A stretch of 64,000 nt of DNA from Acidobacteriota bacterium (GTDB lineage Bacteria; Acidobacteriota; UBA6911; RPQK01; JANQFM01). Location: NCBI GenBank assembly GCA_041630155.1, contig JBFKLX010000003.1, positions 1,915 to 65,914 of the forward strand, written 5' to 3'. The notes beneath the pieces were generated by a model, which was given only the letters and a program-made list of their open reading frames with translations, was not told the DNA's origin and made no database searches. Made by a program: the position numbers and the translations under genes. Every line of letters begins with the position of its first letter. Position 1 is the stretch's first letter. This document shows positions 36,831-59,810 of the stretch, piece after piece.

Positions 36831-38261
36831 ATGGTTCACCTCCTGCTTGTGGCTTACACGATTCTGTTGGCCTATCATGCCTGGGCCGGCGGACGGCAGA
36901 CTCGGGGTCTGGCAGACTATTACATCGGAGGCCGCAGGATGGGGGGGCTCGCCATCGGACTCTCCTTCTTCGCGACCTACTCGAGCACCAACAGTTTCGT
37001 CGGTTTCTCGGGACAGAGCTACGCCTGGGGAGCAGCCTGGCTCTGGCTCGTCCCATTCATCGTCGGATTCACCCTCTTGTCCTGGCTGCTCGTCGCGCCG
37101 CGCCTCCGCCTCCTCACCGAATCACTGGACTCACTGACGATCCCCGATTTCATCGGTTTCCGCTTCCGCAGCACGGCGTCACGGTTGGCGGCAGCGGTGA
37201 TCGTCCTCTTCGCCAGCCTCTTCTACATGACGGCCGTTTTCAAAGGCATCGGGAATCTCCTGGAAGCCTTCCTCGAAATCCCATACGAGAGCTCCATTCT
37301 GCTCGTCTTCCTGATCGTGATGCTGTACACGGCAGTGGGTGGATTCATTTCGGTCGTGAAAACGGACACCGTCCAGGGAGTGGTCATGATCGCGGCGGCC
37401 GTGCTGCTGTTCGCCGGCGCCACTCGCGCGGCCGGCGGAGTCGAGACGCTCTTCATGAATCCCGATCCCTCGGCCGGTCCGGAGTTCTCTCCGGGGGATG
37501 GAGGAATCGCCTTTCCCCTTCTGTTGGGAGTGCTTTTTTCGGCGACGGTCAAGACCCTCGTCGAACCTCGGCAGCTCTCTCGATTCTACGCCCTGAACAC
37601 GCCCTCGGACATTCGCGTGGGAATCTGGGTTTCCGGTCTCAGCTTCGCCCTGGTCTATACGCTCTTGACGCCGATCGGACTCTACGCGCGCCGAATCCTC
37701 CCGCCCGGAATCAGTGAAAGTGACCTGGTGGTGCCGACCTTGCTGCGCACCGAAGGGGTCTTCTCGGACGGCGCCAGCGCTTTTCTGCTGCTGGCCATGG
37801 TGGCGGCGGCGATGTCCTCGTTGGACAGCGTCCTTCTGGTGATGGCTTCCACGGCCGAGCGCGACGTGATGGGGGTCTTCAGACGGCGTCCGCTCAGTGA
37901 AGGCGCATCGGTGCGCAGCACCCGGCTCTACGTGGTGCTGTTCGCTTTTCTCACCATGCTGATGGCCCTCCGTCCACCCGGGGGCATCGTGACATTGACG
38001 GCCCTCTCGGGAGCAGTCTATGCGACCTGTTTCTGCCCCGCCCTTCTCCTGGGGCTCTACTGGCGGCGGGGCAACGGAGCCGCGGTCATGAGTTCATTCG
38101 CGGCCGGGCTTCTGGTGCTCTTTTCCTGGAGACTGACTCCCCTTGGCAACACGATTCATGAGGTCTTTCCGGCGGTCCTGCTGTCGTTGCTGGTCTTCGT
38201 GGCCGTCGCGGTCGTCACGCCGCCCAGGATGAGTCACGACGCGGTCGCTCATTTCGAGTGA
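36831..38261 (+). CDS. Sodium:solute symporter family transporter
   Basis: 13 TM SSS core; ATG at 36831. Confidence 0.75.
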   Translation: MVHLLLVAYTILLAYHAWAGGRQTRGLADYYIGGRRMGGLAIGLSFFATYSSTNSFVGFSGQSYAWGAAWLWLVPFIVGFTLLSWLLVAPRLRLLTESLDSLTIPDFIGFRFRSTASRLAAAVIVLFASLFYMTAVFKGIGNLLEAFLEIPYESSILLVFLIVMLYTAVGGFISVVKTDTVQGVVMIAAAVLLFAGATRAAGGVETLFMNPDPSAGPEFSPGDGGIAFPLLLGVLFSATVKTLVEPRQLSRFYALNTPSDIRVGIWVSGLSFALVYTLLTPIGLYARRILPPGISESDLVVPTLLRTEGVFSDGASAFLLLAMVAAAMSSLDSVLLVMASTAERDVMGVFRRRPLSEGASVRSTRLYVVLFAFLTMLMALRPPGGIVTLTALSGAVYATCFCPALLLGLYWRRGNGAAVMSSFAAGLLVLFSWRLTPLGNTIHEVFPAVLLSLLVFVAVAVVTPPRMSHDAVAHFE

Positions 38262-38449
38262 GACGTAGCTCGCCCTGCGGCGACTCCCGGAGCGGATTTT
38301 TGCCCGGTCGTGTCGCCTCAGGGCCCGGGGCATCTGACTGCGCCGCTGGGGCATTCGGCCCGGAAGGGAGAACCTGATGTCCGGAACAGCGCATTGGCCG
38401 ACGCTCTAGGTTATCGGCGGGTACTGCGTCCCCCACTCTTGCCATTCTC

Positions 38450-38465
38450 TGGCACATCCCTTGCT
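38450..38465 (+). promoter_or_regulatory. Sigma-54 (-24/-12) promoter consensus TGGCACatcccTTGCT
   Basis: Exact GG-N10-GC spacing; ~180 nt upstream of the giant-protein ATG. Confidence 0.55.
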
Positions 38466-38645
38466 CGCAATAGCGGCAAATTCACGTTCTTTGCCCGCCT
38501 GACCTCGGGAAGAGGGGCCATGAGCCAATCCGCCAGCCTGTGTTCCGGACCAACCGAAGGGCCATTGGCTCGTCTCTGGCTTCACCCTCGGATGCCGTTC
38601 TCGGGGTGCCTGCGAGCAGCATCGAGAAACAGTCGGGAGACCGCC

Positions 38646-41600
38646 ATGGCCGAGCCGAGATTCAAGTTCAATTCTAGCCAAATCGTGCTTCTGCTGGGAT
38701 TCTGGGTTGCCCTTGCAGGCGTTGCCGAGCCGGCCCTCGCGGGCACGTACTCCAATGGGGTTTACGAGGAACAGTACTTCGGCGGCCAGGCGACACTGCG
38801 GTTCGAGTTCCGGGCCGATGAAGCCATCCCGATCTCGATCCGGGAGGTAGTCGAAAACTACGGCGGGTACGTTTATCCCTACACTTACTTTCTGATTCAT
38901 CACGAATTGCGTGCGAGCATCATCACCTACTCCGTCTCGGGGTCTGCCCAGGTGACCTTGACCCGTTCCAGCGAACAATTCGACTGGAGTTCCCGAAGGC
39001 TGATCTCCGCCAATCCCTTCCGCATGCAGGTCAACACGTATTACCGTTTCCAGCTGCGCGCCAGTGGGCAGCCGGACGTGTACGCGTACTTCACCCTGGA
39101 GCAGACGCAAGCCCCGCCCAATGTCGAGATGGAAGTCTCGGCCACTCCCTGGCTGGATCTGGAGGAGCCGACTCGGGCCTTGATTCCCGCCGACCGGCGA
39201 TTCCCGGCGAAGTTCAAGATCAGCCTGGTGGATGCCGACAGCTACCCCAAAGAGCCGTTCACCGAGCCCCAATCCGTATTCGTGACCCTCGCGGACAGCG
39301 AGAGGGGAACGCTGGAGTCATTGCAGACGTCGGCATCGGGCCGGCAAATCACTTTGACCACCGACGACAAAGGTGAAGCGGAGTTCCAATACGTGTATCT
39401 GGGAAACGCCCCCCAAAGCCAGCCTTTGCAGGAGTCGATTGCGATCGAATGTCCCGCGCTCGGCCTGGAGGAGTCTGCCAGCGTGTCCATCGGATTGAAA
39501 CCGGAAATCCTGGAGGTGGTCAAGCGCTGGGATAGCAGAACCCAGTTGCCCCGAACGATGGGGCTTCGGGTCCAGGTGCGAGACGAGTTCTGGCCCGATC
39601 TGGACTACCTGGAATACAATCGGCGGCTGAGTCTTGCCGACCCGGAAGGCGAGACGCTGGGTGTCTTCCTGACCACCACCTGGCTCAACCCCCCCGATGA
39701 GGAAGGGCACATCGCCGATTTCCTGGAGTACCTGCAGATGGGCTTCGCCTTGAGCGATGAGGACGAATTCTACGACGGGCGGGGGTACGTCGAGATACTC
39801 AAGGGCAGATACCTGTTCAAGGCTATCGACAGCCCCGCGGTGACCCTGGAAATGCGTTTTCCGGCGCACGTCTTCGTCCGCCCGGGGACACGCTGGTTGA
39901 CGGCTCAACTCGAGCTGATCGTGGCGCCCGAGGAAGTCGCCAGTCCGCTCGAAAAGATCTTCGGCACCCAGAGCAATACGATCATCTACGCGGTCGACGT
40001 GATGCGTGGGGGGGAAAGTGTCCTGCAGTCGATTGCCTGTTCGTTTCAGCCGACGACCTCGGCTCAATACTGGGTGAAGTACACGCTCAATCACGACTAT
40101 TTCAAGCATGCCTTGGAGGTCGGCGGGGGCGCCGGATACATCGTGAGCATGCGAACGGTGCAGTTGTTCGACCTGACCTGTGAATACCTGCAGGGCAACT
40201 ACTTCAACGTCATGCAAGCCCTCGTCGGGGAATACCTCAGCAACCTGGACGCCCTTCGTGAGTCGGGGGAGCTCGAGTTGAGTGCAGGGGAGGCGCGGCA
40301 GCTGGCTCGCTACCTCACTGTCAGTGAAGGCAAGGACATGTACGACGTCCTGAATTTCACGGCCGACGAAATACTGGGGAATCAGGACTCACGGTTTTCG
40401 AGCTGGCCGCCGCGGGGACGGCGATTCACCCGGCCCAGCGAGTCGCTACCGGAAATCCCTCCCGGCGTGGACCTGGCCGAGTTGAGGCAAATCTTCAACG
40501 AGTCGCTCCTGGGGTTGCTGGCGGGGATGGGTGAGGAGGGACTCGAGATCATCGCCGTCTCCAATGGAACCGTTCAACTGCTCAGTCCCGACTCGAGTCC
40601 CTACCCGGAGGAGTCGATTCTCGCTGCCGTCGAGAGCGAGGGGAGCAAGATCTACCTCCTCCCGGAGAACACGGCGCTTCTGGCCGTGGAGCACTCGGGA
40701 GCGCTTCAGATCAATCGTTTTCTGTACGGCCCGGGCGCGACCATGGAGACCGCCTGGTACTCGGTGGGAGACCCGCAGGCACCGGCCACCAGCAGCCTGG
40801 ATTGTTCTCAGGGCCTGAATGCGCAGCTTCTGGTCGACGCGGGGTCCAACGGCTCGGTCGATGAGACCTTGGCTCCCGCCACCACTTCCTACACCCCCTC
40901 TCCGGACGATCTGGACGGGGTGGCGGCAGTCGTGGAGGACCAGGGCCCCAACGGCGGAGATGCCAACCGTGACGGTCTCTTGGACAGCACTCAGCCGAAC
41001 GTGGCTTCGTTGCCCAACGCGGTCGATTCCCGGTATGTGACGCTGGTCTCGCCCGCAGGGACTCGTCTCCGCGGCGTACAGGCCTTGGAGCAGATCGAGG
41101 CCGATCCCGCTCCCGAAGGCGTCAGCTTCCCGCTCGGGCTGTTCGAATTTCACGTCGAAGGGTTGGAAACCGGAGGGTCGACCACCGTTGAGATGCTCCT
41201 GCCCGAGGGAGTGCAAGTCAACTCGTACTACATTCGCGGGTCGACGACCGGGGAAGGCACGGACCACTGGTACGCCTTTCCCTACGACCAGGAAACCGGT
41301 TCGGAACTGGAAGAAGACCTGGTTCGGCTGCATTTTCGAGATGCCGGCAGAGGCGACAGCTACCCATTTCCGGACGGAGTGATCATCGAGCCTGGCGGAC
41401 CGGCTTTCGTGATCCGAGAGGATCGCCTGAACTTCGCCCAGTTCGCCACCGGCGGAGGGCTCTTCAGTGAAGTGGTCCTGTTGAATCTGGATGCGGAAAC
41501 CGAGGCGGACGTGGAGGTCTACTTTCGGGACGACGACGGCCAGCCTCTGAGCTACCAAGCCGGCAGCAGGGAGGTGCCTGGATTCATGCACCTTTCGATT

Positions 41601-42743
41601 CCGGCTGCGGGAATGAGAGTGTTTCAAACCGACGGAGGAGGAGTTGGAGTGGCAGGATCGGCCGATGTTCGTTCCAGCCGTCCGCTGGCCGGAGTCTTGA
41701 TCTTCGGCGGTGCTTTCGGCTTGGCAGGTGTCGGCGACAGCCAGGATTTGACGGTATTCTCAGCACCCATGGAGAAAACCGATTCCCGTGGAATCAACAC
41801 CGGGATCGCTGTGATGAACGCAGCCGACGCGCCCACCGACCTCGACCTGCGTCTCCGTGGCGCCGACGGAGAGGAGCTGGCAACCGCCTCGGAAAACCTT
41901 CCGGGGAGGGGACACAAAGCGGTTTTTGTCGACCAGTTCGACTGGAGTCCGCCGGTCGACTTCAGCGACTTTCGGGGAGTCCTGGAGGCGAGCAGCAGCG
42001 GACCCATCGGAGTCACGGTCCTGCAGACCAGGCCGGGGCAGTTCGCCACCATGCCGGTGGCCCCGCCGCCGGGTGGCAGCGGATCGGCCTCTCCCGACCT
42101 GAATTTTGCTCAATTCGCCACCGGTGGAGGGCTGTCCAGTGAGATCATCCTTCTGAATCTGGACGCCGGAACCGAAGCCCAGGCGGAGGTGCATTTTCGG
42201 GACGACGTGGGGAATCCCTCGAGCTTCGAGCTGGACGGCGCCAGCGTCGACGGCCAGCTGCAGCTCTCGATTCCGGCGTCGGGGGTGAGGGTCCTCCAGA
42301 CGGACGGGAGCGGCCCGCCGGTCTCGGGCTCGGCCCGGGTCAGCTCCGATGCGCCACTGGCTGGGGTGCTGGTCTTCGGCGGCAGCTTCGGTCTCGCCGG
42401 TGTCGGGAGCAGCCAGGAGCTGACGGGTTTTCTGGCTCCGATGGAAAGGATCGCGTCCGCCGGCATCAATACGGGAATCGCAGTCATGAATGGGGACGAC
42501 TCACCGGTGAATCTGGACCTGCGGCTGCTGGACGTGGACGGCCGGGAACTGGCGACGGCCAATGAGACGATTCCCGCTCGAGGACACAAAGCGGTCTTCG
42601 TCAACCAGTTCGACTGGAGCCCGGCGATGGCTCTCGCGGACTTTCGCGGAATCATGGAAGTCACCAGCAGTGGGCGAATCGCCGTCACGGTCCTGCAAAT
42701 CCGCCCCGGCCAGTATGCGACGATGCCGGTGGGGAGCAGGTGA
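38646..42743 (+). CDS. Giant secreted protein (1,366 aa): novel N-terminal region, a Ca-binding D-x-N-x-D-G loop + beta-sandwich domain ending ...RGDSYPFPDGVIIEPGGPA, then a tandemly duplicated two-domain C-terminal module
   Basis: Signal peptide MAEPRFKFNSSQIVLLLGFWVALAGVAEPALA. Internal repeats LNFAQFATGGGL...(x2) and GINTGIAVMN...GHKAVFV.QFDWSP...(x2). Confidence 0.7.
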   Translation: MAEPRFKFNSSQIVLLLGFWVALAGVAEPALAGTYSNGVYEEQYFGGQATLRFEFRADEAIPISIREVVENYGGYVYPYTYFLIHHELRASIITYSVSGSAQVTLTRSSEQFDWSSRRLISANPFRMQVNTYYRFQLRASGQPDVYAYFTLEQTQAPPNVEMEVSATPWLDLEEPTRALIPADRRFPAKFKISLVDADSYPKEPFTEPQSVFVTLADSERGTLESLQTSASGRQITLTTDDKGEAEFQYVYLGNAPQSQPLQESIAIECPALGLEESASVSIGLKPEILEVVKRWDSRTQLPRTMGLRVQVRDEFWPDLDYLEYNRRLSLADPEGETLGVFLTTTWLNPPDEEGHIADFLEYLQMGFALSDEDEFYDGRGYVEILKGRYLFKAIDSPAVTLEMRFPAHVFVRPGTRWLTAQLELIVAPEEVASPLEKIFGTQSNTIIYAVDVMRGGESVLQSIACSFQPTTSAQYWVKYTLNHDYFKHALEVGGGAGYIVSMRTVQLFDLTCEYLQGNYFNVMQALVGEYLSNLDALRESGELELSAGEARQLARYLTVSEGKDMYDVLNFTADEILGNQDSRFSSWPPRGRRFTRPSESLPEIPPGVDLAELRQIFNESLLGLLAGMGEEGLEIIAVSNGTVQLLSPDSSPYPEESILAAVESEGSKIYLLPENTALLAVEHSGALQINRFLYGPGATMETAWYSVGDPQAPATSSLDCSQGLNAQLLVDAGSNGSVDETLAPATTSYTPSPDDLDGVAAVVEDQGPNGGDANRDGLLDSTQPNVASLPNAVDSRYVTLVSPAGTRLRGVQALEQIEADPAPEGVSFPLGLFEFHVEGLETGGSTTVEMLLPEGVQVNSYYIRGSTTGEGTDHWYAFPYDQETGSELEEDLVRLHFRDAGRGDSYPFPDGVIIEPGGPAFVIREDRLNFAQFATGGGLFSEVVLLNLDAETEADVEVYFRDDDGQPLSYQAGSREVPGFMHLSIPAAGMRVFQTDGGGVGVAGSADVRSSRPLAGVLIFGGAFGLAGVGDSQDLTVFSAPMEKTDSRGINTGIAVMNAADAPTDLDLRLRGADGEELATASENLPGRGHKAVFVDQFDWSPPVDFSDFRGVLEASSSGPIGVTVLQTRPGQFATMPVAPPPGGSGSASPDLNFAQFATGGGLSSEIILLNLDAGTEAQAEVHFRDDVGNPSSFELDGASVDGQLQLSIPASGVRVLQTDGSGPPVSGSARVSSDAPLAGVLVFGGSFGLAGVGSSQELTGFLAPMERIASAGINTGIAVMNGDDSPVNLDLRLLDVDGRELATANETIPARGHKAVFVNQFDWSPAMALADFRGIMEVTSSGRIAVTVLQIRPGQYATMPVGSR

Positions 42744-45874: not shown

Positions 45875-47011
45875 TCACAGGCTCTTTGCCTGGGGGCTCA
45901 GCAGACTGTTCACCAACGGCGCGCCACCCAGATGTTCAAAAAAGGTCGCACCTACTTTCTTCTCGAGGATCTGAAAAGCGTCGAAGGCTGCGCCAATGGC
46001 GGCTTTCTCCGAAGCACACAGGAAGGGGCCTACCCGGTTGTAGTACCCGGTCGAAAAATAGTTCGAGCAGCCGCACCAGTTCATGCAGTAGTCTCGCAAG
46101 CCGCAACTCGAGCACTCAGAATTGACGGATTCGCCCGCGGCCGTGTGGCAAAGCATCTTCCGGGGCTTGATCCCCTCGTGAACGTTGCCGATGCAGTGCC
46201 CGTTGGCTCCGTCACCGACGAGCCGCTCGCAGGGGTAGATGTCTCCGTTGGGTGTGAACGCGAATTCCCCGCGGCCCATACGGCAGCGCTCGAGCGGATC
46301 ATAGCCCTTGCGGAGGATCACGCTGATCTTGCTGTCGATGGGGCTGATGAAGTGGGGATCCTGGCGCAGGTAGTAGTCTACGTAAAGCTTCCCGATGGCA
46401 CCAAAGACCTGTGGAAGCGAGGCGACTTCGGCCGGTGTCCAGCGGGCGCTGAAATCGGGGTTGAGGTAAATCTGCCTCACGCCGAGTGAAGAAAAATACT
46501 CCACGGTGCGAGGCAGCTGGGCCAGGTTTTTGGGGCCGTAGACCGCGTTGACCATGACGGCCGAAAAAGCCTCCAGAGCCTCCCGAATCGTTCTCTCGAC
46601 GCGATCAGCGGTGCCGCGTCCGGAATGGAAGCGGCGAAACATGTTCTGGACGTCGGGTGGTCCGTCGCAGCTGATCCCGAAGCCCATGTCGTGCCGGGTA
46701 ACGAAGTCGGCGATTTCCGGTGAGAAGATGGTACCGTTCGTGACAATCGTGAGCTGCACGCGAGTCTCGTCGAAACGAGGGTGGCTCTCGATCAGCTTCG
46801 TGATTTCCTTGACGAGGTCGAACTCCAGGAGCGGTTCGCCTCCAAAGAAACCGACCTCCATCTTTTCGCTGAGCGGAGTGTGCCGGTACATGAACTCGAC
46901 TACGTCTCTTGCGACCGAGCGCGTCATGCGCGCCTTACGCTGACCGATGTAACAGTACCGGCAGGCCAGATTGCAGGATTGTGTCACCAGCAGAGTGTGT
47001 TTCATTCCCAT
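45875..47011 (-). CDS. Radical SAM enzyme with C-terminal SPASM domain, anaerobic sulfatase-maturating enzyme (anSME)-like
   Basis: CNLACRYC (Cx3Cx2C); anSME-like ISCDGPPDVQNMFRRFHSGRGTADRV; C-terminal Cys cluster CIGNV...CHTAAG...CSSCGLRDYCMNWCGC. Track ORF starts at GTG 47053; ATG MGMKHT at 47011. Confidence 0.8.
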   Translation of the reverse strand: MGMKHTLLVTQSCNLACRYCYIGQRKARMTRSVARDVVEFMYRHTPLSEKMEVGFFGGEPLLEFDLVKEITKLIESHPRFDETRVQLTIVTNGTIFSPEIADFVTRHDMGFGISCDGPPDVQNMFRRFHSGRGTADRVERTIREALEAFSAVMVNAVYGPKNLAQLPRTVEYFSSLGVRQIYLNPDFSARWTPAEVASLPQVFGAIGKLYVDYYLRQDPHFISPIDSKISVILRKGYDPLERCRMGRGEFAFTPNGDIYPCERLVGDGANGHCIGNVHEGIKPRKMLCHTAAGESVNSECSSCGLRDYCMNWCGCSNYFSTGYYNRVGPFLCASEKAAIGAAFDAFQILEKKVGATFFEHLGGAPLVNSLLSPQAKSL

Positions 47012-47489
47012 CCACAAACGGACTCGCGACTGCTCGCCGCGGGATGATCGCACCCCAATCGAAGACGATCAGGGGTGAGCGAAATTGCCCGACCCACTCG
47101 GTCCGCCTTCCGAGTCGTCAGGGTGAGCAGGCACAAGAGGGCGACCAGTCACCGGGTCTCCGACGAGTTCCCACATTGAGAAAACTCAATTCTGTTTCGT
47201 GTGACTACTAATGGCGCAGTTGGACTAATGAGTCAATAGCCATCTCTGAAGTGAATTGACACAAAAGTCAAAACAAGTCGGCATTGGGACAGCGGGCGGG
47301 GGTGACCGCCGGAAGGGTGTGTCCAAGGTTGGCTGAGTACGGACTGGTGGAAGGGGTCTTTCCCCGGCGGTACGAGCTCTCCACGTCCCGCCAAGGAGCC
47401 TGACGAAACGCCGAGGGTCTTCGACCCGCATCCGTCGCGTCGCCGTGCGACCCTTCGGCCTGTCTGCGGAAGTGCCCGTCGAGGGCGGC

Positions 47490-49961
47490 TTAGGGTGTTG
47501 TGGTGGGCTCAGGATCGGCAACGATCTGCGGAACCAGTGTGAGATTGCGGGTGATCGTCTGGCTGAAAGCGGCCACGGCCACCGGGCGGGAAGCTCGGAC
47601 GACCAACGAACGGGCAGGAGTTCTGGGATGCACGGGGAACCACCGGGGCAGGCGAGCTTCGAGTCGCTCGCGGGGGCCCAGTGTCGCTTTTCGGACGATC
47701 AGGGTATAGTTGCGACCTCTGTCCAGCTCCAGTTCGACCTGGGCACTCTCTTCGGACGAATTCAGGATGTAAAGGAACAAATCCGCTGCGCTTTCGGGTC
47801 GCAGCTCGAATTGGAACTGGGAGGCGAAGCGGGCCGCCGGAAACAAGACACTTCCTCGACCTGCCCCTTCCGTTTTCACGAACCCGGTCAGGGCTTCATC
47901 AGCGTTGACCTCGAGCCACCCGGTCCGACTGGCCCCTTCCCAGCTGGCAGGCCAGGAACGCACCTCGAGCGGTGCAAGCCGAAACATTATTTCGGTCGGA
48001 CTCGCCCCTGCCAGGAGCGGCATCTCAGCCTCGCTTCCATCGGTTCCGCCCAAACGCAGCGTTCCCTGCGCAGTCTCCAGCCCAGGATTGAACAGGACCA
48101 GACGGGTGTCCCAGCCCGGACGCGCTTGGAAGTACGGAAAAACGAGGTGGGTCTGGCGAGCCGCCAATCCCGCCAGCGGCACCTCTGCCGCACCCCACGG
48201 CCCCAGGAAGAGCAGGTGCGCGCTCACCGGGGAATCCGACCGCAGCCCGAGCCATCCCAGATCAGCAGGCCCGCCTCCCGGCAACCCGGTCGCGTCGTTG
48301 GCCGGCCAGAGCAGGCGGCCGGGGGGAAGGGTGATCGTTTCGCGTCCTCCTTTCGATTCACTCCAGCGGGAGCCGCGAATCTCCAAGATAGTAGTTGATT
48401 CGCTGGAATTCTCGAACAGCAAACGAGAACTGGTCTTGTCTCGTTCGGTAACAGGGAAGGAGGCCTCTTGGACCGGCTCGTCGTCCAAGACGGCCTGTTC
48501 CTTCATCCCGGCGAAGGCTACCTCCAGGAAGGCGGGATTCGAAGAGTCCGGTGGAAGATTCGTCTCGAACTTCCCGTTCCGGTAGAGCAAATGATAGCTG
48601 GATTTGGAGTCGGACGAATTGCGGCGCAGATAATCGTTCCAGTGGGGATAGACCTGCAGGCGGGAGGAGCCATAGGCGAGCCTGAGCAGGAATACTTGAT
48701 GATAGCGAGGGATGGGGGAGTTTTCGATCACCAGGACCGCATCCGGTGGAAGATCCGGATGCCTCTCGAACAGTGCAGTTGCAAACCCCCGCCACAGCTT
48801 GCCCCGGTAGAGAAAACTCCGCCGGCCGCGGTCGAAAGCGTCCCAATGCCAGGTGGCCAAGAGGACCAGAAGGACGCCGAAGGCTCCCAACTGGAGCCCC
48901 CGCCTGTCTCTGAACCGCTCTGTGGAAACGAGGCGAACCCCTTGCAGCAGGAGGGCAGCCAGGTAGAGGGCAAGGCCGAGAGCGGGGATGTAGAGAAAGA
49001 GTCCCCAAACACGAGGAAGCGGAAGCACCGGCGCCAGGACGAGCAGGAACCAGGCCAGGCCGAAAATCATGTGCCGGTTGCGCAGCATCAAAGCCAGGAG
49101 GGCGGCCATGGCGAGTCCGATCGACGCGCCGAGAGCCGAGAGTTCGAACCAGCCACCAGCCAGCTGTTCCAAATATTGAGCGAGGTTGTGAGGAATTGTC
49201 GCGTCGAGGTGGTAACGGTACAGAGGGTTTGTTGTGAAGCGGGTTGTTGGACCCCAGATTTTGCCCACGGCGTCGATCAGAGAGATCAGGAAGAAGGGGG
49301 ATAGCCGGACGGCGGATGCCGCCAGCACCCGCCTTTTCGGAGAGCAGTAGAGCAGCTGATAGAGCAGCAGGATCGCCGGCAGGAGAGCCGCAATTTCCTT
49401 GGCGCCGAGGGCCATCCCGAAACTGAGAAAAGAGAGAATGTAGGCCTTTTTCCGCCCACCCTCGAGATAGTTGAGGTAGAAGTGGAAACTGGCGCACATC
49501 AAACCCAGCGCCAGGGTCTCGTAAACCGCACCAAAGTTGTACCAGACGGTCACGTAGGCGGGGTGAATCGCCGCCAGCGCAACCGCGGTGGCAGCCAGGA
49601 AGCGCTGCTTCGTGATGCGCAGCAACAGGGTGAAAGCCAACACCAGATTGAGACTCGTCAGGATCAAGCCCGTCAGGTAGTAGGCCAGTGGATTCACCCC
49701 GAAGAGATCGTAGAGGATCACGTAGACGAGCCCGCCCACAGGGCGCTTGTAGTCCACCCAGAAATGAAGGTTGGCGAGCAGCGCGTCCTGCCAAGGCCTG
49801 AAGACGTAGTAGTGCAGGTTGCTGACGTCGTCGCCGGAAAGGTAAGCGCCCAGCATGGGGAGGACGAACGGCACTGAATAGAGGAGGATCAGAGCAAGCA
49901 GCAACGCCGAAAACCAGGAAGTTCGAAGACGAGAGTCCGGAGTTCGGCGGCGATCGTCCAT
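47490..49961 (-). CDS. Large polytopic membrane protein (PMT/ArnT/YfhO-like glycosyltransferase-type topology, family uncertain) with a C-terminal soluble module homologous to the giant-protein repeat module
   Basis: ~12 TM helices then LVFPYFQARPGWDTRLVLFNPGL... and FLYILNSSEESAQVELEL... segments resembling the 38646-42743 repeats; start MDDRRR at 49961. Confidence 0.55.
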   Translation of the reverse strand: MDDRRRTPDSRLRTSWFSALLLALILLYSVPFVLPMLGAYLSGDDVSNLHYYVFRPWQDALLANLHFWVDYKRPVGGLVYVILYDLFGVNPLAYYLTGLILTSLNLVLAFTLLLRITKQRFLAATAVALAAIHPAYVTVWYNFGAVYETLALGLMCASFHFYLNYLEGGRKKAYILSFLSFGMALGAKEIAALLPAILLLYQLLYCSPKRRVLAASAVRLSPFFLISLIDAVGKIWGPTTRFTTNPLYRYHLDATIPHNLAQYLEQLAGGWFELSALGASIGLAMAALLALMLRNRHMIFGLAWFLLVLAPVLPLPRVWGLFLYIPALGLALYLAALLLQGVRLVSTERFRDRRGLQLGAFGVLLVLLATWHWDAFDRGRRSFLYRGKLWRGFATALFERHPDLPPDAVLVIENSPIPRYHQVFLLRLAYGSSRLQVYPHWNDYLRRNSSDSKSSYHLLYRNGKFETNLPPDSSNPAFLEVAFAGMKEQAVLDDEPVQEASFPVTERDKTSSRLLFENSSESTTILEIRGSRWSESKGGRETITLPPGRLLWPANDATGLPGGGPADLGWLGLRSDSPVSAHLLFLGPWGAAEVPLAGLAARQTHLVFPYFQARPGWDTRLVLFNPGLETAQGTLRLGGTDGSEAEMPLLAGASPTEIMFRLAPLEVRSWPASWEGASRTGWLEVNADEALTGFVKTEGAGRGSVLFPAARFASQFQFELRPESAADLFLYILNSSEESAQVELELDRGRNYTLIVRKATLGPRERLEARLPRWFPVHPRTPARSLVVRASRPVAVAAFSQTITRNLTLVPQIVADPEPTTTP

Positions 49962-50097
49962 GTCGGAGCATTGTACATTTGAGCCCCGGGAGAGGCGACC
50001 AGTCCCCGGCCCGAACAGTTTCGCCCCAGCCTCTGGGCGCCCGGCCCACTCTCCAGCTGCCGGTTGCAGAGGATTGTCTTGGGGGAGTGCTGTCCGG

Positions 50098-50769
50098 TCA
50101 CCAGGGCGGTGAGATGATCGCATCTACCGGGGGCGCCGGATAGTACTGCATCGTTCGCTTGACCTTGCGCGCCATGTCGGGCGATGCAAAGCGCGCGACG
50201 AAATGCAGCGACATGTCGATGCCGGCGCTGATGCCCGCGGAGCTCAGGCATTTGCCATCATCCACGAAGCGGTCGTCGCCGCGAACGTCGATGTCGGTGC
50301 CCAGCCCCGCCAGCAGATCGAGACATTTGAAGTGCGTCGTGGCGCCCCGACCGTCGAAGACTCCGTAGGCGGCGTAAACGAGGGCCCCCACGCACACGCT
50401 GACCGGCATGGCGCCCGAGTCGAAGGCAGCCTCGAGCATCGCTTCGATGTCCGGTCGCAGACCTTTGTCGTAGTTGCAATCCACGAAGTGGGACTCCATG
50501 TTCTGCCCACCCAGGTAGAAAAGGGCATCCAGCGGCAGGACGTTGTCGGGCCAGATTTTGTCCGGGATGAGCTTCATTCCCTTGGCGCCCACGACGTGGT
50601 CGCGGCCGCCCGGCAAGGGAAGGGAGAAGGTGAAGAGGTCCACCTGGCGCTCTTCCGTTGAGCCCTTGGCCAGGAAGCGCCACCAGCCGAGAACCTCCAG
50701 GGGGCCGACCACATCCATCTCGTCGACGCGATCGAAAACGAAGATCCCGATGCGGAAGGGATTGGCCAT
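50098..50769 (-). CDS. DJ-1/PfpI family protein
   Basis: MANPFRIGIFVFDRVDEMDVVGPLEVL; nucleophile-elbow Cys in SVCVGALVY. Confidence 0.7.
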   Translation of the reverse strand: MANPFRIGIFVFDRVDEMDVVGPLEVLGWWRFLAKGSTEERQVDLFTFSLPLPGGRDHVVGAKGMKLIPDKIWPDNVLPLDALFYLGGQNMESHFVDCNYDKGLRPDIEAMLEAAFDSGAMPVSVCVGALVYAAYGVFDGRGATTHFKCLDLLAGLGTDIDVRGDDRFVDDGKCLSSAGISAGIDMSLHFVARFASPDMARKVKRTMQYYPAPPVDAIISPPW

Positions 50770-51179: not shown

Positions 51180-51484
51180 CTACCATCCCTGGGGGAGTCT
51201 TTGCCAGTCGCGCGACAGGTAGTCGCTCATCAGGAAGGCCAGCAGGATCACCAGCCAGAAGAAGCCGGCGCCGGCGTAGACCCAGGTGAGGCGGCTGCTG
51301 TAGCGGACGTGCATGAAGTAGAGGATGACCAGAGTGGCCTTCAGGATGGCGATCGAGAGGGCGAGGATGGTGTTGTAGCTGCCGGGCAGGTCCAGGAAAG
51401 CGGCCCAGACGGTCAAAAGCGTCAGGACCATGAGGGAGGAGAAGATCACCAGATAGACCCTGATCGGGACGACGTGATCGGACA

Positions 51485-51485
<1 letters not shown>
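51180..51485 (-). CDS. Cytochrome c oxidase subunit IV (caa3-type small subunit)
   Basis: 101 aa, 3 TM, last gene of the cox operon; start overlaps the coxC stop. Confidence 0.6.
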
Positions 51486-53827
<2,342 letters not shown>

Positions 53828-53831
<4 letters not shown>

Positions 53832-54802
53832 GGGTTGCTCACGGTCCTTTCCGGGGCGGTCGGCGCCTGGCTGGACGCCTGCAAAGACTTGACATAGGCA
53901 ATGATCTGCAACAGGCCGGTCTCATTGATTTGCCCTTGAAAGGTGGGCATGATCTGGGAGTATCCGGCTACCATCTTGGCGCCTGGATTGAGTATCGACT
54001 CACGAATGTAGGCTTCGTCCGCCAGGACGGTCTGTCCGCCCTGCAGCCGCACCGGCTGGCCCCACAACTGGGCCAGATCGGGGCCGCGAGCGCCCGAGGT
54101 CTCGTTGTGACAGGTGTTGCAGCGCAATTGTTCGAACAGCTTTCGGCCCGACACTTCCAGGGGTTCGCCGGCGCCGGCGCCGCTCAGCCAGCTCTCGTAG
54201 TCGACCGGGTCCATGACCGTCACCCAGCCGATCATTTGCGAATGTTTGGTGCCGCAGTACTCGGTGCAGAACAGGTGGTAGCGGCCCGGCCTGGTGGCCT
54301 CGAACCAGGCGCTGGTCTAGCGTCCCGGCAAGACGTCCATCTTGATGCGAAACGCCGGGATGAAGAAGCTGTGAATGGTGTCTTCGGAGGTCATGGTCAA
54401 GCGCACGGGCTGTCCCACGGGCACGTGCAGGGAGTTGATCTCCCGCTGGCCGCTGGGGTGCTGAATCTTCCACATCCACTGCTTGGCCACCACCAGCATG
54501 TCCAGCGTGTCCGAAGGCGCCCGGTTCATCTTGTAGTAGAGCGACGTCCCCCAGACGAAGATCCCCATGGCGATGACGAAGGGAATGATCGTCCAGGTCA
54601 GCTCCAGCTTGAGCGAACCGACCAGGGGCCTCGGCACTTCGAGCTCGGACTTGCGCCGGTAGCGGATGGCGAAGTACGTCACCAGCGAAAAGATCAGGAC
54701 CGAGAAGAAGAGGCTGACCGCGATCAGGAAAAAGTAGAGGGTGTCGACCTCTCCCGCGATCGTCGAAGCCTGTTCGGGAAACAAGAACGAATCAGACCAC
54801 AT
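53828..54802 (-). pseudogene. coxB: Cytochrome c oxidase subunit II with C-terminal cytochrome c domain (caa3-type), interrupted by one in-frame TAG (plus-strand 54317-54319)
   Basis: Same frame on both sides of the TAG: ...[42 protein letters not shown]... (intact CuA site H-C-E-C-H-M) and CNTCHNE haem motif downstream. Confidence 0.8.
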
Positions 54803-54825
54803 AAGCGTTGAACCCGTATCCTTTG

Positions 54826-55686
54826 TTAGCGGTGCGCAACTCCCCGTCCTGCGGTCACTTCTTTGGCGCGCTCGGCGCGCAGGAACCAGATCATCATGCC
54901 GACCACTCCCAGCAGCGTGAGCAGTGCGGCGATCCGGAGCACGTTCATGATCACCAGGCTGTAGCGGCCCAAAGCGGGATCGTAGCGGAAACAGTACAGC
55001 AGCACCTGGTCCACCGGCGTTCCGATTCTGCCTGAAGCCGCCTCCACCAGGGTCAGCCGCAAATCACGAGGCGAGTACTCGACGCCGAAGAAGTAGCGGG
55101 CGACCTTTCCCTCGGGCGTGAGGACCTGAATGGCGCTGGCGTGGCTGTACAGGTCCGTCTCGGGCTCGTAACGGTAGCGGAAGCCCACCGCGTCGGCCAG
55201 GGCCTGGATAGATGCCTCGGGGCCGGTCAGGAAGTGCCAGCCGGCGGCGCCCTCCGGCCGGCCGTACCCTTTGACGTACACCCCCTTCTTGTCATTCGCC
55301 ATCTGCGCCGTCTCTCCGGGGTCGATACTGACGGTCACGATCCGGTACTCCTCGCCCAGATCGAACTGGAGGGGGCGGATCGCGCGCAGCACTCCGTTGA
55401 GGATTTCCGTGCAGAGCATGGGGCACTCGTAATAGGCGAGGACCAGGACGACCGGCTGCCGGCCGAAGTAGTCGCCCAGCCGGACGGTCCGCCCCTGCTC
55501 GTCGGTGAATTCGGCATCCAGAGGTACCTGGGCGCCCAGCTTCTGGTCGATTCCCACGTTCTGCAGGCCGGGCGGCCGCTGGTCGGCGTTCAAGACTTGG
55601 CCGTGTGCTCCGGACATCAGCGGGCCGAACGCCAGCACCACGGCCGGTGCGGCCAGCCGAAACCAGTTTTGCTTCACTCTTCTCAT
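54826..55686 (-). CDS. SCO1/SenC family copper chaperone (thioredoxin fold, CxxxC), membrane-anchored
   Basis: CPMLC motif; N-terminal signal/anchor from MRRVKQN; C-terminal TM. Confidence 0.75.
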   Translation of the reverse strand: MRRVKQNWFRLAAPAVVLAFGPLMSGAHGQVLNADQRPPGLQNVGIDQKLGAQVPLDAEFTDEQGRTVRLGDYFGRQPVVLVLAYYECPMLCTEILNGVLRAIRPLQFDLGEEYRIVTVSIDPGETAQMANDKKGVYVKGYGRPEGAAGWHFLTGPEASIQALADAVGFRYRYEPETDLYSHASAIQVLTPEGKVARYFFGVEYSPRDLRLTLVEAASGRIGTPVDQVLLYCFRYDPALGRYSLVIMNVLRIAALLTLLGVVGMMIWFLRAERAKEVTAGRGVAHR

Positions 55687-55721
55687 CCGACTCACGTACC
55701 TTCCTCGATGGGCCAGTCCGT

Positions 55722-56072
55722 CTACCGGGCGTCCGGCCTCTGGGGTGGCGCCTGGACTTCCGGCAGACCCCGTTCCAACAGCAACTGCATGGCTCGTTCG
55801 ATGGGAATCCGCACGACTTGGCCGTCCCGGTCGATCCACTGGTAACTCTCCAGCATCTGGGAGCTTCTCATCCGGTACTGCTCCAGGTCGATGCCGGGAG
55901 CGGGCTGCAGTCTCGGCAGCGGGGGCAGGGGATTGGGTTCTGCCAGGGGTGACGGCAGGATGTCGACTGCCGCCTGCCGCTCTTCCAGGAAGTCGAACAT
56001 CCCGATCATGCCCACGAAAGCGATCACCGAAGCCACCGCCAGTATGACGGTCAGCCAGACGATCGGTTTCAT
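55722..56072 (-). CDS. Small membrane-anchored protein within the act-cox operon (possible accessory subunit)
   Basis: Single N-terminal TM (MKPIVWLTVILAVASVIAFVGMIGM), then a Pro-rich linker and soluble domain. Confidence 0.4.
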   Translation of the reverse strand: MKPIVWLTVILAVASVIAFVGMIGMFDFLEERQAAVDILPSPLAEPNPLPPLPRLQPAPGIDLEQYRMRSSQMLESYQWIDRDGQVVRIPIERAMQLLLERGLPEVQAPPQRPDAR

Positions 56073-56124
56073 CTGGACATCGGTTTGTTCGTGTTTGGGA
56101 GGTGCAGGCTTCCCCGGCGTCGGG

Positions 56125-57315
56125 TCAACCATGTTCGACCATCCTCTCTCCGAAGGCCTCTCTCAGGCGCGGATCGTTGATGGGCAGCAGCGCCCGATCC
56201 TTCAGTTTGTGGCACAAGACGGCCAGCCAGAGCCCGCCCAGTCCCAGAAAGGCCACCGGGTCGGTCCACTGCACGTTGAAGCCGGCATGATGATCGATCC
56301 CAGGGACGATCAGGAAGAACAGGTCGGCGATGCGCAGCAACAGCAGCGCCCCGGCCAGCAATCCCAGCACTCGAGCCCGCTGTTTGTTGCTTCGCGAGAG
56401 CAGCAGCGCGAAGGGCAGGGCGAAATGAAAAACGATCAGGAAAATCGCCAGGTACTCCCAGCCGCCGTGGGTGCGGCTGAGATACCAGGGGATTTCCTCC
56501 GGCAGATTGCCCGACCACACGATCAGGTACTGCGAGAAGTTCAGATAGGCCCAGAGCATCACGAAGGCGAGCAGAAGGTTGCCCAAGTCGTGGAAGTGCT
56601 TGGGTTGAACGATCTTGGCCAGCGGCTCGTACGGGCGCAGCCAGCGCAAGCAGAGAACCGCGAACGCCAGGGCCGCCAAACCGTAGCTCTCCAGGAAGAT
56701 CAGGCCGTAGATAGTGGAGAACCAGTGGGGCTCGAGCGACATGGCCCAGTCGATCGAGCTGAAGGTGATGGTGGCGCCCATCAGCAAGATTCCCGGCCCG
56801 CTGATCAGCTGCAGCTGGCGTGTCAGCCCGGGGTCTCCGGTCCGGTCCTGCTGCACCGAGCGCAGGTTCAGGATGTAGGCCCAGGCGATCCAGAGGGCGA
56901 AGTAGAGGGCGGCGCGGCCGATGAAAAAGGGGACGTTCAGGTAAGGCTGCTTGAGCTGCAGGAGTTCGTCCTGCGCGACGGCCTCGGGGCGAGCCCATTC
57001 GAACAGCTCGGGCAGTCCGAACAGCAGCGGGATGAAGAGAACCCCTACCAGAGGAAAGGTCCGCGTGACCGCCTCCAGGATGCGACGGATCACGAAACCC
57101 CAGCCGCCTCCCACCATGTGATGAAGCATGAGAATCGCCAGCGAACCCACCGTGATGCTCAGGAAGAAGAGGTAGCTCAACAGGTAGGATCGGAAGAAAT
57201 GCCCCGGGTGGACGGAGAAGGCCACGGCCAGACCCAGGACGCCCAGGCCGCCGGCGATCAGGAAGCGACCCCGGAGTCGGTCCAGTTGGTTGGCCAGGGC
57301 TTCGGCGACTTTCAT
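56125..57315 (-). CDS. actF: Alternative complex III subunit ActF (NrfD/PsrC-like membrane protein)
   Basis: Polytopic NrfD-like protein following actE. Confidence 0.75.
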   Translation of the reverse strand: MKVAEALANQLDRLRGRFLIAGGLGVLGLAVAFSVHPGHFFRSYLLSYLFFLSITVGSLAILMLHHMVGGGWGFVIRRILEAVTRTFPLVGVLFIPLLFGLPELFEWARPEAVAQDELLQLKQPYLNVPFFIGRAALYFALWIAWAYILNLRSVQQDRTGDPGLTRQLQLISGPGILLMGATITFSSIDWAMSLEPHWFSTIYGLIFLESYGLAALAFAVLCLRWLRPYEPLAKIVQPKHFHDLGNLLLAFVMLWAYLNFSQYLIVWSGNLPEEIPWYLSRTHGGWEYLAIFLIVFHFALPFALLLSRSNKQRARVLGLLAGALLLLRIADLFFLIVPGIDHHAGFNVQWTDPVAFLGLGGLWLAVLCHKLKDRALLPINDPRLREAFGERMVEHG

Positions 57316-57887
57316 GGGCGTTCCTCGATCGTGACTCCCGCCGGCACGTCGGCGGGTGTGGCATTCTGGCTCAGCTGCAGGGCTCGAATGTAGGCGATGA
57401 TCGCCCAGCGGTCCTCCGGTGCGACCCGGGACGCATAACTGTACATGGCCCCGAAGCCGTTGGTGATGACGTCGAAATAGTAGCCGGGCGGCGAGCCGCG
57501 CAGCCGATCGATGTGGAATGAGGGGGGCGGACGCAAGCCACGTTGCACGATCATCCCGTCTCCGTATCCGGCATGCCCATGGCAGGGCGAGCAGAAGATG
57601 TCATAGCGCTCCCGGCCCCGCTCGAGCAGCTCCCGGGTCAATTCCAGCGGGAGGGCGGCGGCCGGCTGACCATTCACCTTGCCCGTGTAGAGATGCTCGT
57701 CTTCGTGGAGCTGGCCACGCGCCACGGTGCCCTCCACGACGGGGCGCGAGGCCCGGCCGTCCCGGAAGAACCGGCTCTCGGCCAGCGGCTTGTAGCGCGG
57801 CTGATCGTGCATGTCCATCCGGCAGCCTCCCGTGAACGCCCCCAGGGCGAGCAGAAGTCCCGCAGCCGGTCCCCTGGGCAGCCTCAT
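57312..57887 (-). CDS. actE: Alternative complex III subunit ActE (monohaem cytochrome c lipoprotein)
   Basis: Lipobox LLLALGAFTGGC; CSPCH haem motif. Confidence 0.75.
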   Translation of the reverse strand: MRLPRGPAAGLLLALGAFTGGCRMDMHDQPRYKPLAESRFFRDGRASRPVVEGTVARGQLHEDEHLYTGKVNGQPAAALPLELTRELLERGRERYDIFCSPCHGHAGYGDGMIVQRGLRPPPSFHIDRLRGSPPGYYFDVITNGFGAMYSYASRVAPEDRWAIIAYIRALQLSQNATPADVPAGVTIEERP

Positions 57888-58423
57888 GACTCCACCTCGT
57901 GGACTCCGTGGGCGCCCAGGCCCTCCAGAAAGTCCCGGGTCTTCTCCCGGTCGTAAAGGGGATCGCCGGCCTCGATGCAGAGGAAGAATCGGTTGCGAGT
58001 GGCCAGCTTGAAGCGATTCACGTTGAACACCGGATGGTACGGCATCGGCAGCCCGTTGAGGGCCAGCATTCCCAGCACGGCGGCCAGAGCGGCTGCCAGG
58101 ACGGTGGTCTCGAAGGTGATGGGAATGAAGGCGGGCCAGCTGTGCAGCGGGCGCCCCCCGATGTTGAGAGGGTACTCGATGACGGTCGCCCAGTACTGCA
58201 GGCCGTAGCCCCCTAGCGCTCCCAGCAGGCCTCCCGTCAGAACGATCAAAGGCAGCCAGGTCCTCTTGAACCCCATCGCTTCGGCCAAGCCGTGCACCGG
58301 CAGCGGCGTGTAGGCGTCCATCTTCCGAAAGCCGGCGGCGTGAGCGGCGGTGGCAGCCTGGAGAATCTCCCCCTGGCTGCGGAATTCCGCCAGCATGCCG
58401 TAAGCCGGAAGTTCTCGACTCAT
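57884..58423 (-). CDS. actD: Alternative complex III subunit ActD
   Basis: Position and size; two central TM helices; DUF3341-like. Confidence 0.7.
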   Translation of the reverse strand: MSRELPAYGMLAEFRSQGEILQAATAAHAAGFRKMDAYTPLPVHGLAEAMGFKRTWLPLIVLTGGLLGALGGYGLQYWATVIEYPLNIGGRPLHSWPAFIPITFETTVLAAALAAVLGMLALNGLPMPYHPVFNVNRFKLATRNRFFLCIEAGDPLYDREKTRDFLEGLGAHGVHEVES

Positions 58424-58436
58424 GCCTCGTCACTCC

Positions 58437-59810
58437 TCAATGATGCGTCGTGTCCTCGCCATCGCCGCGCCCCGGCAGCAAGGTCCGCATTTCGAAAATG
58501 GAAATCATCGGCAGGACCCGGATGAACAGGAACAGCAAGGACAGAAACAACCCCAATGTGCCGATGTAAATGGCCCAATCCCAGAAGGTGCCGGCATACA
58601 TGCCCCACGAGGAAGGCAGGAAATCGCGGTGCAGGCTGGTCACGACGATCACGTAGCGCTCCAGCCACATGCCCACGTTGACGATCAGCGAGACCACGAA
58701 CAGCATGCCCGCGTGGTTGCGAACCTGCCGGATCCACAGCACCTGGGGCGTCAGGACGTTGCACAGGATCAGCATCCAGTACATGTACCCGTACGGTCCC
58801 GTCATGCGGTTGGCCATCATGTAGCCTTCGTAGATGCTTCCGCTGTACCAGGCGAAGAAGGTTTCCATCATGTAGCCGTAGGCGACGATCAGGCCGGTGG
58901 CCAGCATGATCTTGGCCATGTTGCGCAGGTGGCGCATCGTGATGAAGTCTTCCAGCCCGTAGAGTTTGCGGATCGGGATGGCCAGCGTCATCACCATCGC
59001 GAATCCCGAATAGATCGCTCCGGCCACGAAATAGGGCGGGAAAATGGTGGCGTGCCAGCCGGGAACGATTCCGACCGCGAAGTCGAAGCTGACCACGGTG
59101 TGAACCGACACCACCAGCGGCGTGGCCAGCCCAGCCAGCAGGAGATAGGCCGTTTCATAGCGAAACCAGTGGTACGCCGAGCCCCGCCAGCCCATGGCCA
59201 GCATGCCGTAGACGACGCGCGCCAGCTTGACCTTGGTGCGGTCGCGCAGGGTCGCCAGGTCGGGAATCAGCCCCACGTACCAGAACAGCAGCGAAACCGT
59301 GCCGTAGGTCGATACGGCGAACACGTCCCAGACCAGGGGGCTCCGGAACTGGGGCCACATCAGCATCGTGTTGGGGTAAGGCACCAGCCAGTAAGCCAGC
59401 CAGGGGCGCCCCGTGTGCAGCAGTGGGAAGATTCCCGCGCAAGCCACCGCGAACAACGTCATGGCTTCGGCGAACCGGTTGATCGACGTCCGCCAGTCCT
59501 GCCGCAGCAGCAGCAGGATGGCTGAGATCAACGTTCCGGCATGGCCGATACCGATCCACCAGACGAAGTTGATGATGGCGAATCCCCAGCCCACCGGAAC
59601 GTTGATGCCCCACACGCCCACGCCGATCAGAAGGGTGTAGGCGATGGCGTAAAGCATCAGCATCAGCAGCGTGAAGGCACCGGCGAAGCCGATGAACCAG
59701 CCCAGAGGAGTTCGGCCCGTCAGGACGATCGCGCTGATCTTGTCGGTGACCGAAGCGTAGGAGTGGCCCGGCTCGATCACCGGGGGTGGCAGTTCCGGTG
59801 GGCTACTCAC
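58437..59810 (-). CDS. actC: Alternative complex III subunit ActC (NrfD/PsrC-like quinol-interacting membrane subunit)
   Basis: 10-TM NrfD-like sequence WGINVPVGWGFAIINFVWWIGIGHAG. Confidence 0.85.
   Translation of the reverse strand: MSSPPELPPPVIEPGHSYASVTDKISAIVLTGRTPLGWFIGFAGAFTLLMLMLYAIAYTLLIGVGVWGINVPVGWGFAIINFVWWIGIGHAGTLISAILLLLRQDWRTSINRFAEAMTLFAVACAGIFPLLHTGRPWLAYWLVPYPNTMLMWPQFRSPLVWDVFAVSTYGTVSLLFWYVGLIPDLATLRDRTKVKLARVVYGMLAMGWRGSAYHWFRYETAYLLLAGLATPLVVSVHTVVSFDFAVGIVPGWHATIFPPYFVAGAIYSGFAMVMTLAIPIRKLYGLEDFITMRHLRNMAKIMLATGLIVAYGYMMETFFAWYSGSIYEGYMMANRMTGPYGYMYWMLILCNVLTPQVLWIRQVRNHAGMLFVVSLIVNVGMWLERYVIVVTSLHRDFLPSSWGMYAGTFWDWAIYIGTLGLFLSLLFLFIRVLPMISIFEMRTLLPGRGDGEDTTHH

Follow-up and report, generated by a model that had tools for sequence, protein, structure and literature searches.

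The question raised by the locus described here is why a polytopic membrane protein and a large secreted protein, encoded 5 kb apart in an Acidobacteriota genome, end in what looks like the same kind of domain, and whether this makes the two proteins functional partners. The locus lies in a stretch of 64,000 nucleotides (the window, throughout this paper) of an Acidobacteriota bacterium (assembly GCA_041630155.1, contig JBFKLX010000003.1, positions 1,915 to 65,914 of the forward strand); the membrane protein is encoded on the minus strand and the secreted protein on the plus strand (Table 1). An earlier reading of this DNA, made from the letters alone and referred to here as the sequence-only reading, had proposed that both proteins carry one extracytoplasmic module, and had suggested a common ligand or a specific pairing of the two. 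The module is indeed shared, and by its fold and signature it can be assigned to the ASRAH superfamily. The reading preferred here, with a probability of about 0.55, is that the membrane protein is a glycosyltransferase of the GT-C type with a periplasmic, glycan-binding ASRAH dyad, and that the same dyad would act as a glycan anchor in secreted proteins; this functional assignment is made by analogy with known members of both groups.

Homology of the C-terminal modules

The C-terminus of the secreted protein consists of two tandem repeats of ~215 aa, i.e. two dyads comprising four domains. The C-terminal ~205 aa of the membrane protein (residues 660-864) are homologous over their whole extent to this repeat; residue numbers of the membrane protein refer throughout to the maximal open reading frame (ORF) of 877 aa, in which the start codon at 49961 is Met55. 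Direct pairwise comparison of the tail with the repeats gave marginal scores (E ~1e-3 in BLASTP and E 0.05 in tblastn), and profiles were therefore needed. A hidden Markov model (HMM) of the module was built from 179 repeat copies, taken from 119 database proteins and from the secreted protein of the window. Among the 403 six-frame ORFs of the window, the sole match to this HMM other than the secreted protein itself was the membrane ORF (E 8.6e-7, 23.3 bits), the next-best ORF having an E-value of 0.93, and residues 660-755 aligned end to end with HMM positions 2-99. None of 5000 shuffled versions of the tail scored above 6.8 bits; the real sequence scored 26-29 bits. A profile-profile alignment had been proposed as a check on the shared module, and hhalign, with the tail and two homologs on one side and 40 repeat copies on the other, returned a probability of 99.8% and an E-value of 1.3e-28 over 202 aligned columns, which span template positions 2-211 of 217. 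The claim of a common C-terminal module is thus confirmed by the HMM, the shuffles and the profile alignment alike. Its details fared slightly less well. The first motif pair cited for it (VFPYFQAR.../FAQFATGG...) stands in register in the MAFFT alignment A3, and so does the beginning of the second pair (FLYILNSS.../GIAVMNGD...), whereas its end does not, LPRWFP lying ~2 columns away from QFDWSP.

The result was the same when the tail served as a phmmer query in an exhaustive search of 1.84 billion representative proteins. Of the 40 hits, one was the identical database twin of the membrane protein (P0001); among the other 39, 37 reached E-values of 3.5e-6 or below with the module HMM, a good number of them with >150 bits (P0144, for instance, matched at 211 and 243 bits). 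The closest full-length homolog, P0126 (841 aa, phmmer E 2e-26), was aligned over the whole tail and matches module HMM positions 2-207 at 87 bits, and P0131 (837 aa) has the same architecture as the window enzyme. The second half of the enzyme's module (half B) is supported by the profiles, by these two homologs and by the structure model. An HMM of half B alone detected nothing in the window enzyme's sequence, and an HMM merged from halves A and B was weaker on it than the HMM of half A. This silence of the half-B HMM, together with the marginal BLASTP and tblastn scores, could be taken to indicate that the resemblance is a chance or compositional similarity of unrelated beta-rich regions. 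Such an explanation is rejected on the HMM E-value of 8.6e-7, the shuffled maximum of 6.8 bits and the hhalign E-value of 1.3e-28, and its probability is very nearly nil.

Assignment of the module to the ASRAH superfamily

The ASRAH superfamily comprises ASRT/TM1070-like beta-sandwiches (De Souza, Iyer and Aravind, 2009; PMC2739507), of which ASRT is represented in Pfam by PF07100. In the original description, the ASRAH domain is a sandwich of eight strands, the second of which ends in a nearly invariant Asn, and its secreted versions were found always as dyads or tetrads; a sugar-binding cleft was predicted (PMC2739507). An actinobacterial family of ASRAH lipoproteins is tightly linked to a glycosyltransferase, to which it is fused in Frankia, and the dyads of this family were predicted to bind the polysaccharide of the linked glycosyltransferase (PMC2739507).

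The module of the window has an eight-stranded beta-sandwich with the TM1070/ASRT topology, and the AlphaFold2 (AF2) model of the secreted protein's dyad reached a predicted local distance difference test score (pLDDT) of 95.7. The Asn that closes strand 2 was found in half A of 128 of the ~159 ungapped copies and is nearly invariant in half B (N132 in alignment A2); in the enzyme, the aligned positions read LVLFN and LYILN, so both halves carry it (alignment A3). The aromatic residue of strand 1 is always or almost always Phe (F4 and F112 in A2), in the context VFPYF and QFQFE in the enzyme, and not the Trp described for ASRAH.

Sequence profiles of known families had little to say about the module. 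PF07100 matched two of 28 related dyads with a best E-value of 0.021, and a search of the PDB sequences with the dyad profile yielded nothing meaningful. The only Pfam family with repeated matches was DUF5719 (PF18986), which matched 11 of the 28 dyads of the enzyme's subfamily, at best with E 2.9e-8; these matches take in the beginning of the sandwich together with its ...N motif and cover ~60 of the 319 profile positions. The DUF5719 cut-off of 26.2 bits was passed by the related dyad carriers P0129 (32.8 bits) and P0131 (31.2 bits) and was not reached by the tail of the window enzyme (E 0.2, 11.2 bits), and no match to DUF5719 was obtained in the secreted protein. DUF5719 probably corresponds to the actinobacterial family of ASRAH lipoproteins. 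The literature search found no paper on DUF5719 and, for ASRAH, only the paper of 2009.

As modelled, both halves of the module are ASRAH-type beta-sandwiches, which together make up an ASRAH dyad. The module, which is without a Pfam model, would constitute a new Acidobacteriota-centred ASRAH-type family, the fourth of the superfamily, filed on its fold and signature and not on sequence profiles.

The dyads aligned in A3 (P0127-P0164) fall into at least two subfamilies. Dyads of the secreted-protein type carry '...LLNLD...' and '...GSVTV...', and those nearest to the enzyme carry '...LINPS...' and '...TGWxEV...'. Several carriers of the latter subfamily have their dyads near the N-terminus, not at the C-terminus.

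Membrane domain and architecture of the two proteins

The membrane domain matched Pfam PMT_2 (PF13231) with 31.4 bits, above the gathering cut-off of 26.1, over profile positions 4-145 of 160, and the same family is also precomputed for P0001. The polytopic, PMT/ArnT-like character given to the protein by the sequence-only reading therefore holds, and by its Pfam match the protein belongs to the GT-C enzymes; of the ~12 transmembrane (TM) helices counted there, hydropathy and the positive-inside rule give ~11. The short loops rich in Lys and Arg (169-174, 222-228, 263-265, 347-351 and 394-408) all lie on the side of the N-terminus (MDDRRRTPDSR), and the opposite side holds the first long loop with the GDD motif and the 447-residue tail (431-877). 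Because the N-terminus and all of these short loops fall opposite the tail, a periplasmic location is predicted for the tail, which is the general arrangement of GT-C enzymes, and the topology check suggested earlier places the module on the same, outer side. The GDD motif is a candidate for the catalytic acidic motif by analogy with known GT-C enzymes.

Two further domains are situated between the membrane domain and the dyad. In the AF2 model of the tail, the alpha/beta linker domain is formed by helices and strands 7-113 (pLDDT ~80-93), the strands of the following sandwich (121-219) are of lower confidence, and the dyad is mostly above pLDDT 90. The first sandwich gave a weak HMM match to module positions 53-103, and its equivalent in P0131 matches half B with 43.5 bits; it is probably a solo ASRAH-like domain. 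The linker domain is common to relatives that are without the dyad.

The start codon of the membrane-protein gene also deserves attention, since the maximal minus-strand ORF (47490-50123) encodes 877 aa counted from its first ATG. The start at 49961, as given by the earlier reading, is right, because P0001 is 823 aa long and the alignment of P0126 with the protein begins at Met55; the longer ORF would overlap the upstream DJ-1/PfpI gene. As for the secreted protein, its N-terminal ~800 aa (38646-41100) matched no Pfam or NCBIfam family, and the choice-of-anchor U domain, which precedes both dyads, is the only NCBIfam match found. An in-frame extension upstream of its gene (38310-38645) is probably non-coding.

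Distribution of the module and relatives of the enzyme

The distribution of the module was counted in the 119 carriers obtained from one search. One dyad is present in 81 of these proteins and two in 38, and the module lies no more than 15 residues from the C-terminus in 102 of them. The passengers are unrelated to each other and include LRR, multicopper oxidase, EB_dh (ethylbenzene-dehydrogenase-like), PD40/Tol propellers, Calx-beta, LamG, amidohydrolase, GH26+CBM35, P-domain and FG-GAP. The named sources of the carriers are metagenome-assembled genomes (MAGs) of Acidobacteriota, and several carriers share one large contig. A signal-peptide-like N-terminus was recognized by a crude test in 39 of the 66 carriers that look full-length (~60%). 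The module has a conserved terminal ...ATMPV motif; no sorting or anchoring model in Pfam or NCBIfam, such as the C-terminal domain (CTD) of the type IX secretion system (T9SS), PEP-CTERM or LPXTG, matches either protein of the window at E ≤1, and nothing relevant on sorting domains of Acidobacteria was found in the literature. Such a distribution fits a C-terminal module of general use in anchoring or sorting and does not fit a substrate-targeting carbohydrate-binding module (CBM) restricted to glycosidases.

The fusion of the dyad to a GT-C membrane domain is rare. Three distinct examples were found, namely the window protein (with a near-identical twin, P0180), P0126 and P0131, and all three share the order of linker, solo sandwich and dyad at 35% identity. 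P0126 and P0131 were recovered by exhaustive search; a word-indexed homolog search with the full protein gave only the protein itself and weak PMT_2/TPR matches. Scans of genomes and metagenomes added one fusion locus (L003, equivalent to P0131) and seven loci without the module. Relatives without the module comprise four database proteins of 467-553 aa, a tandem pair of paralogs in one MAG, one of which (P0165) is among these four, and proteins encoded at six other loci, one in a genome and five in metagenomes. They all end after the linker domain of ~100 aa, and more distant relatives combine a PMT or PMT_2 membrane domain with TPR repeats.

Conservation of the neighborhood was judged on a single informative locus, L003, where the P0131 homolog is flanked by genes for a GT2 protein (9018-9998, divergent), a methyltransferase (8152-9021) and a YfhO-family protein (12644-14998). 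This set of flanking genes is consistent with a pathway using lipid-linked sugars. In the 10 kb to each side of the fusion gene, L003 contains no ORF with the module. The region 8152-14998 of L003 looks like a small envelope-glycosylation cluster, the counterpart of which is absent from the window. Other arrangements were observed at further loci. The module-less paralogs of the GT-C family at L002, from another Acidobacteriota MAG (8575-10011 and 10001-11500; also at L004), stand in tandem with overlapping stop and start codons and adjoin a gene for a huge GH94/glycoamylase protein and a two-component system. On the short contig that carries P0126 (L001), the gene is immediately preceded, in the same orientation, by a Methyltransf_21 gene and a small protein-kinase-like ORF (317-1703).

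Functional interpretation

According to the preferred reading, the PMT_2-type GT-C enzyme would sit in the inner membrane and, by analogy with its superfamily, take a sugar from a polyprenyl-phosphate carrier. The sugar would be transferred to an acceptor on the periplasmic face by way of the acidic GDD loop that follows TM1, and the dyad of the enzyme would hold the glycan acceptor or the product. In the secreted proteins, the dyad would tether the passenger non-covalently to the cell surface or to extracellular polysaccharide. The role of the dyad in both settings would thus be the non-catalytic binding of a glycan of the envelope or matrix. Such an arrangement would be analogous to that of EmbC and AftD, whose C-terminal carbohydrate-binding domains hold the glycan acceptor, and a precedent is provided by the actinobacterial ASRAH dyads that are linked or fused to a glycosyltransferase (PMC2739507).

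Several observations weigh against this reading. The binding of sugar by ASRAH domains is itself only a prediction of 2009. A search of the PDB sequences with a profile of the GT-C protein found no homolog, so that no solved GT-C structure was matched, and no GT2, flippase or polysaccharide export gene is present near the GT-C gene in the window. The enzyme's dyad is highly divergent and the conserved NTG and GH motifs of half B are lost; since these motifs are not kept, it may not bind the ligand of the secreted-type dyads. Most relatives of the enzyme are without the dyad, so that it is accessory and not essential to the enzyme family, and the TPR repeats on the closest annotated relatives of the membrane domain point to protein acceptors for the wider family.

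The specific pairing of the enzyme with the secreted protein 5 kb away, as suggested by the sequence-only reading, was not upheld. The two genes are convergent, with a gene for a xanthine-dehydrogenase-type molybdopterin subunit (+) and a radical-SAM gene (-), both unrelated, between them, and no synteny is seen at L003. As a C-terminal tail the module is in wide use (102 of 119 carriers), and eight other relatives of the enzyme (nine ORFs) do not carry it at all. The enzyme's dyad is only 15-19% identical to dyads of the secreted-protein type and is not a recent copy of the module of its neighbor; it is 21-25% identical to most dyads of the different subfamily ('NPS...GW' versus 'NLD...GS'). 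Gene order, divergence of the dyads and the wide distribution of the module led to the rejection of a dedicated pairing with the neighboring gene. The common ligand that had also been suggested is plausible as a class of ligand, both proteins having ASRAH-type dyads and the superfamily being predicted to bind sugar. What the two genes have in common is a module in general use and, at most, a type of ligand; they are probably not a dedicated pair of enzyme and substrate.

A different role for the enzyme, as a protein O-glycosyltransferase, would bring the secreted proteins back as its substrates: dyad-bearing proteins, including the neighbor, would be recognized through heterotypic association between ASRAH domains and glycosylated during export. 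ASRT and TM1070 form tetramers, and the dyads and tetrads of ASRAH suggest mutual association; moreover, the nearest annotated relatives of the enzyme combine PMT or PMT_2 with TPR, an architecture associated with protein acceptors, and the two genes are only 5 kb apart. Against this role stand the convergent orientation and the two unrelated genes in between, and L003, where the fusion gene has no module-bearing ORF within 10 kb. The enzyme's dyad is also the most distant from the secreted-type dyads that it would have to recognize (15-19% identity), and, with three fusions against numerous carriers, most carriers must be independent of such an enzyme unless the module-less relatives serve them. 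This role is considered unlikely. Slightly less likely still is that the dyad is a C-terminal signal for secretion or sorting, comparable to the T9SS CTD and without a ligand of its own, whose presence on the glycosyltransferase would be a by-product of domain shuffling or a spacer. The extreme C-terminal position in 102 of 119 carriers, the terminal ...ATMPV motif, the great diversity of passengers and, in the secreted protein, the position of the dyad behind a choice-of-anchor U domain, where a sorting signal usually stands, are all what such a signal would lead one to expect. A sorting signal is harder to reconcile with dyads that are internal (the first of two in tandem) or that belong to an inner-membrane enzyme which is not exported, and these copies led to the rejection of a T9SS-CTD-like signal as the main explanation. 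In addition, no known sorting-domain model in Pfam or NCBIfam was matched, and a selected function is indicated by the order of linker, solo sandwich and dyad, which is kept in homologs of 35% identity.

With glycan binding by the dyad thus preferred, a wider proposal can be formulated, although we regard it as doubtful: the dyad would be a so far unrecognized, general surface-display anchor of Acidobacteriota, C-terminal and non-covalent, by which dozens of unrelated secreted enzymes and adhesins per genome are attached to a specific glycan of the envelope or matrix, and the rare GT-C-dyad fusions would build or decorate the receptor glycan while holding it by their own dyad, so that one ligand would link both. 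Acidobacteriota are abundant in soils and sediments, and their protein surface display is poorly understood. If the dyad does bind a glycan of the envelope or matrix, it would represent a phylum-specific anchoring system, and the fusion enzymes would be a lead to the glycan. If it binds none, the analysis still offers a useful domain annotation and a fourth ASRAH family. In either case, it defines a large family without a Pfam model and a new GT-C+ASRAH architecture.

Genomic context

The coordinates of the two genes, their domains and the principal neighbors are collected in Table 1. Upstream of the GT-C gene and on the same strand lie a DJ-1/PfpI gene, a cytochrome oxidase cluster and an alternative-complex-III-like cluster, and a long same-strand respiratory cluster (51180-63036, -) is situated upstream of the DJ-1 and GT-C genes. 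Besides the radical-SAM gene downstream of the GT-C gene, a second, B12-binding one is encoded far upstream (5307-6914, +). The secreted-protein gene is closely preceded by two sodium:solute symporter (SSF) genes (31847-34128 and 36714-38261, +), the first of which follows a gene for a small DUF997-like membrane protein; next to the SSF genes there is an M19 dipeptidase gene (30732-31850).

Table 1. Features of the window discussed in the text (residue numbers as for the 877-aa ORF).
Feature	Position	Strand	Basis or remark
Gene for large secreted protein, 1365 aa from Met at 38646	38646..42743	+	
Signal-peptide-like N-terminus of secreted protein	38646-38741	+	
Choice-of-anchor U domain	41112..41405	+	NCBIfam NF041766, E 9.4e-16, 58.4 bits vs 32-bit cut-off
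ASRAH dyad 1 of secreted protein	41427..42062	+	Module HMM positions 2-214, 281.5 bits
ASRAH dyad 2 of secreted protein	42096..42734	+	Ends 2 aa before stop codon
Radical-SAM gene directly downstream of GT-C gene	45875-47053	-	Gap ~436 nt
Gene for 823-aa GT-C membrane protein with C-terminal ASRAH dyad	47490..49961	-	P0001 100% identical
Stop codon of GT-C gene	47490-47492	-	
ASRAH dyad of enzyme, residues 660-864 (half A ~660-760, half B ~761-864)	47532..48146	-	Homology to secreted-protein repeat
First beta-sandwich of tail, residues ~551-649	48177..48473	-	AF2 strands, weak HMM match
Predicted periplasmic alpha/beta linker domain, residues ~431-545	48489..48833	-	Alignment with P0165-P0168, P0149 and P0131
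Membrane domain, residues 55-430, ~11 predicted TM helices, N-terminus predicted cytoplasmic	48834..49961	-	Pfam PMT_2, hydropathy and positive-inside rule
Pfam PMT_2 match, residues 128-274	49302-49742	-	
GDD motif, residues 97-99, first predicted periplasmic loop	49827..49835	-	Invariant in three full-length homologs
COX4_pro-containing protein	51180-52109	-	
COX1	52182-53831	-	
SCO1	54826-55839	-	
Cytochrome c, alternative-complex-III-like set	57312-58433	-	
NrfD-like subunit, alternative-complex-III-like set	58437-59810	-	
1077-aa Fer4 subunit, alternative-complex-III-like set	59803-63036	-	

Comparison with known systems

Compared with the ASRAH superfamily, the module shares the conserved Asn of strand 2, the predicted extracytoplasmic location, the occurrence in dyads (enzyme) and tetrads (secreted protein) known from secreted ASRAH families, and the association with a glycosyltransferase known from the actinobacterial family. 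It differs in the absence of a significant sequence-profile match to ASRT or TM1070, in the Phe that replaces Trp on strand 1, and in its occurrence in Acidobacteriota, where it forms the extreme C-terminus of numerous secreted proteins that are otherwise unrelated. The partner also differs, as a GT-C membrane enzyme with a dyad predicted to be periplasmic is an architecture absent from the description of the superfamily (PMC2739507).

Among the GT-C enzymes of the PMT_2/PMT type (ArnT, PMT, TMTC-like proteins and bacterial PMT_2+TPR proteins), the window enzyme is at home by its PMT_2 match above the gathering cut-off, by its predicted topology (multiple spans in odd number, N-terminus inside, acidic motif in the first outside loop), and by the large non-catalytic domain, predicted to be extracytoplasmic, that follows the membrane domain. 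It is unlike them in that no solved GT-C structure is matched at the sequence level and in that its C-terminal domain is a probable ASRAH triad instead of TPR, MIR or a periplasmic alpha/beta domain. With the mycobacterial EmbA/B/C and AftD, no sequence relationship was detected, and the fold of the binding modules and the phylum are different; what the window enzyme would have in common with them is the plan of a GT-C membrane domain followed by C-terminal periplasmic beta-sandwich modules that hold the acceptor.

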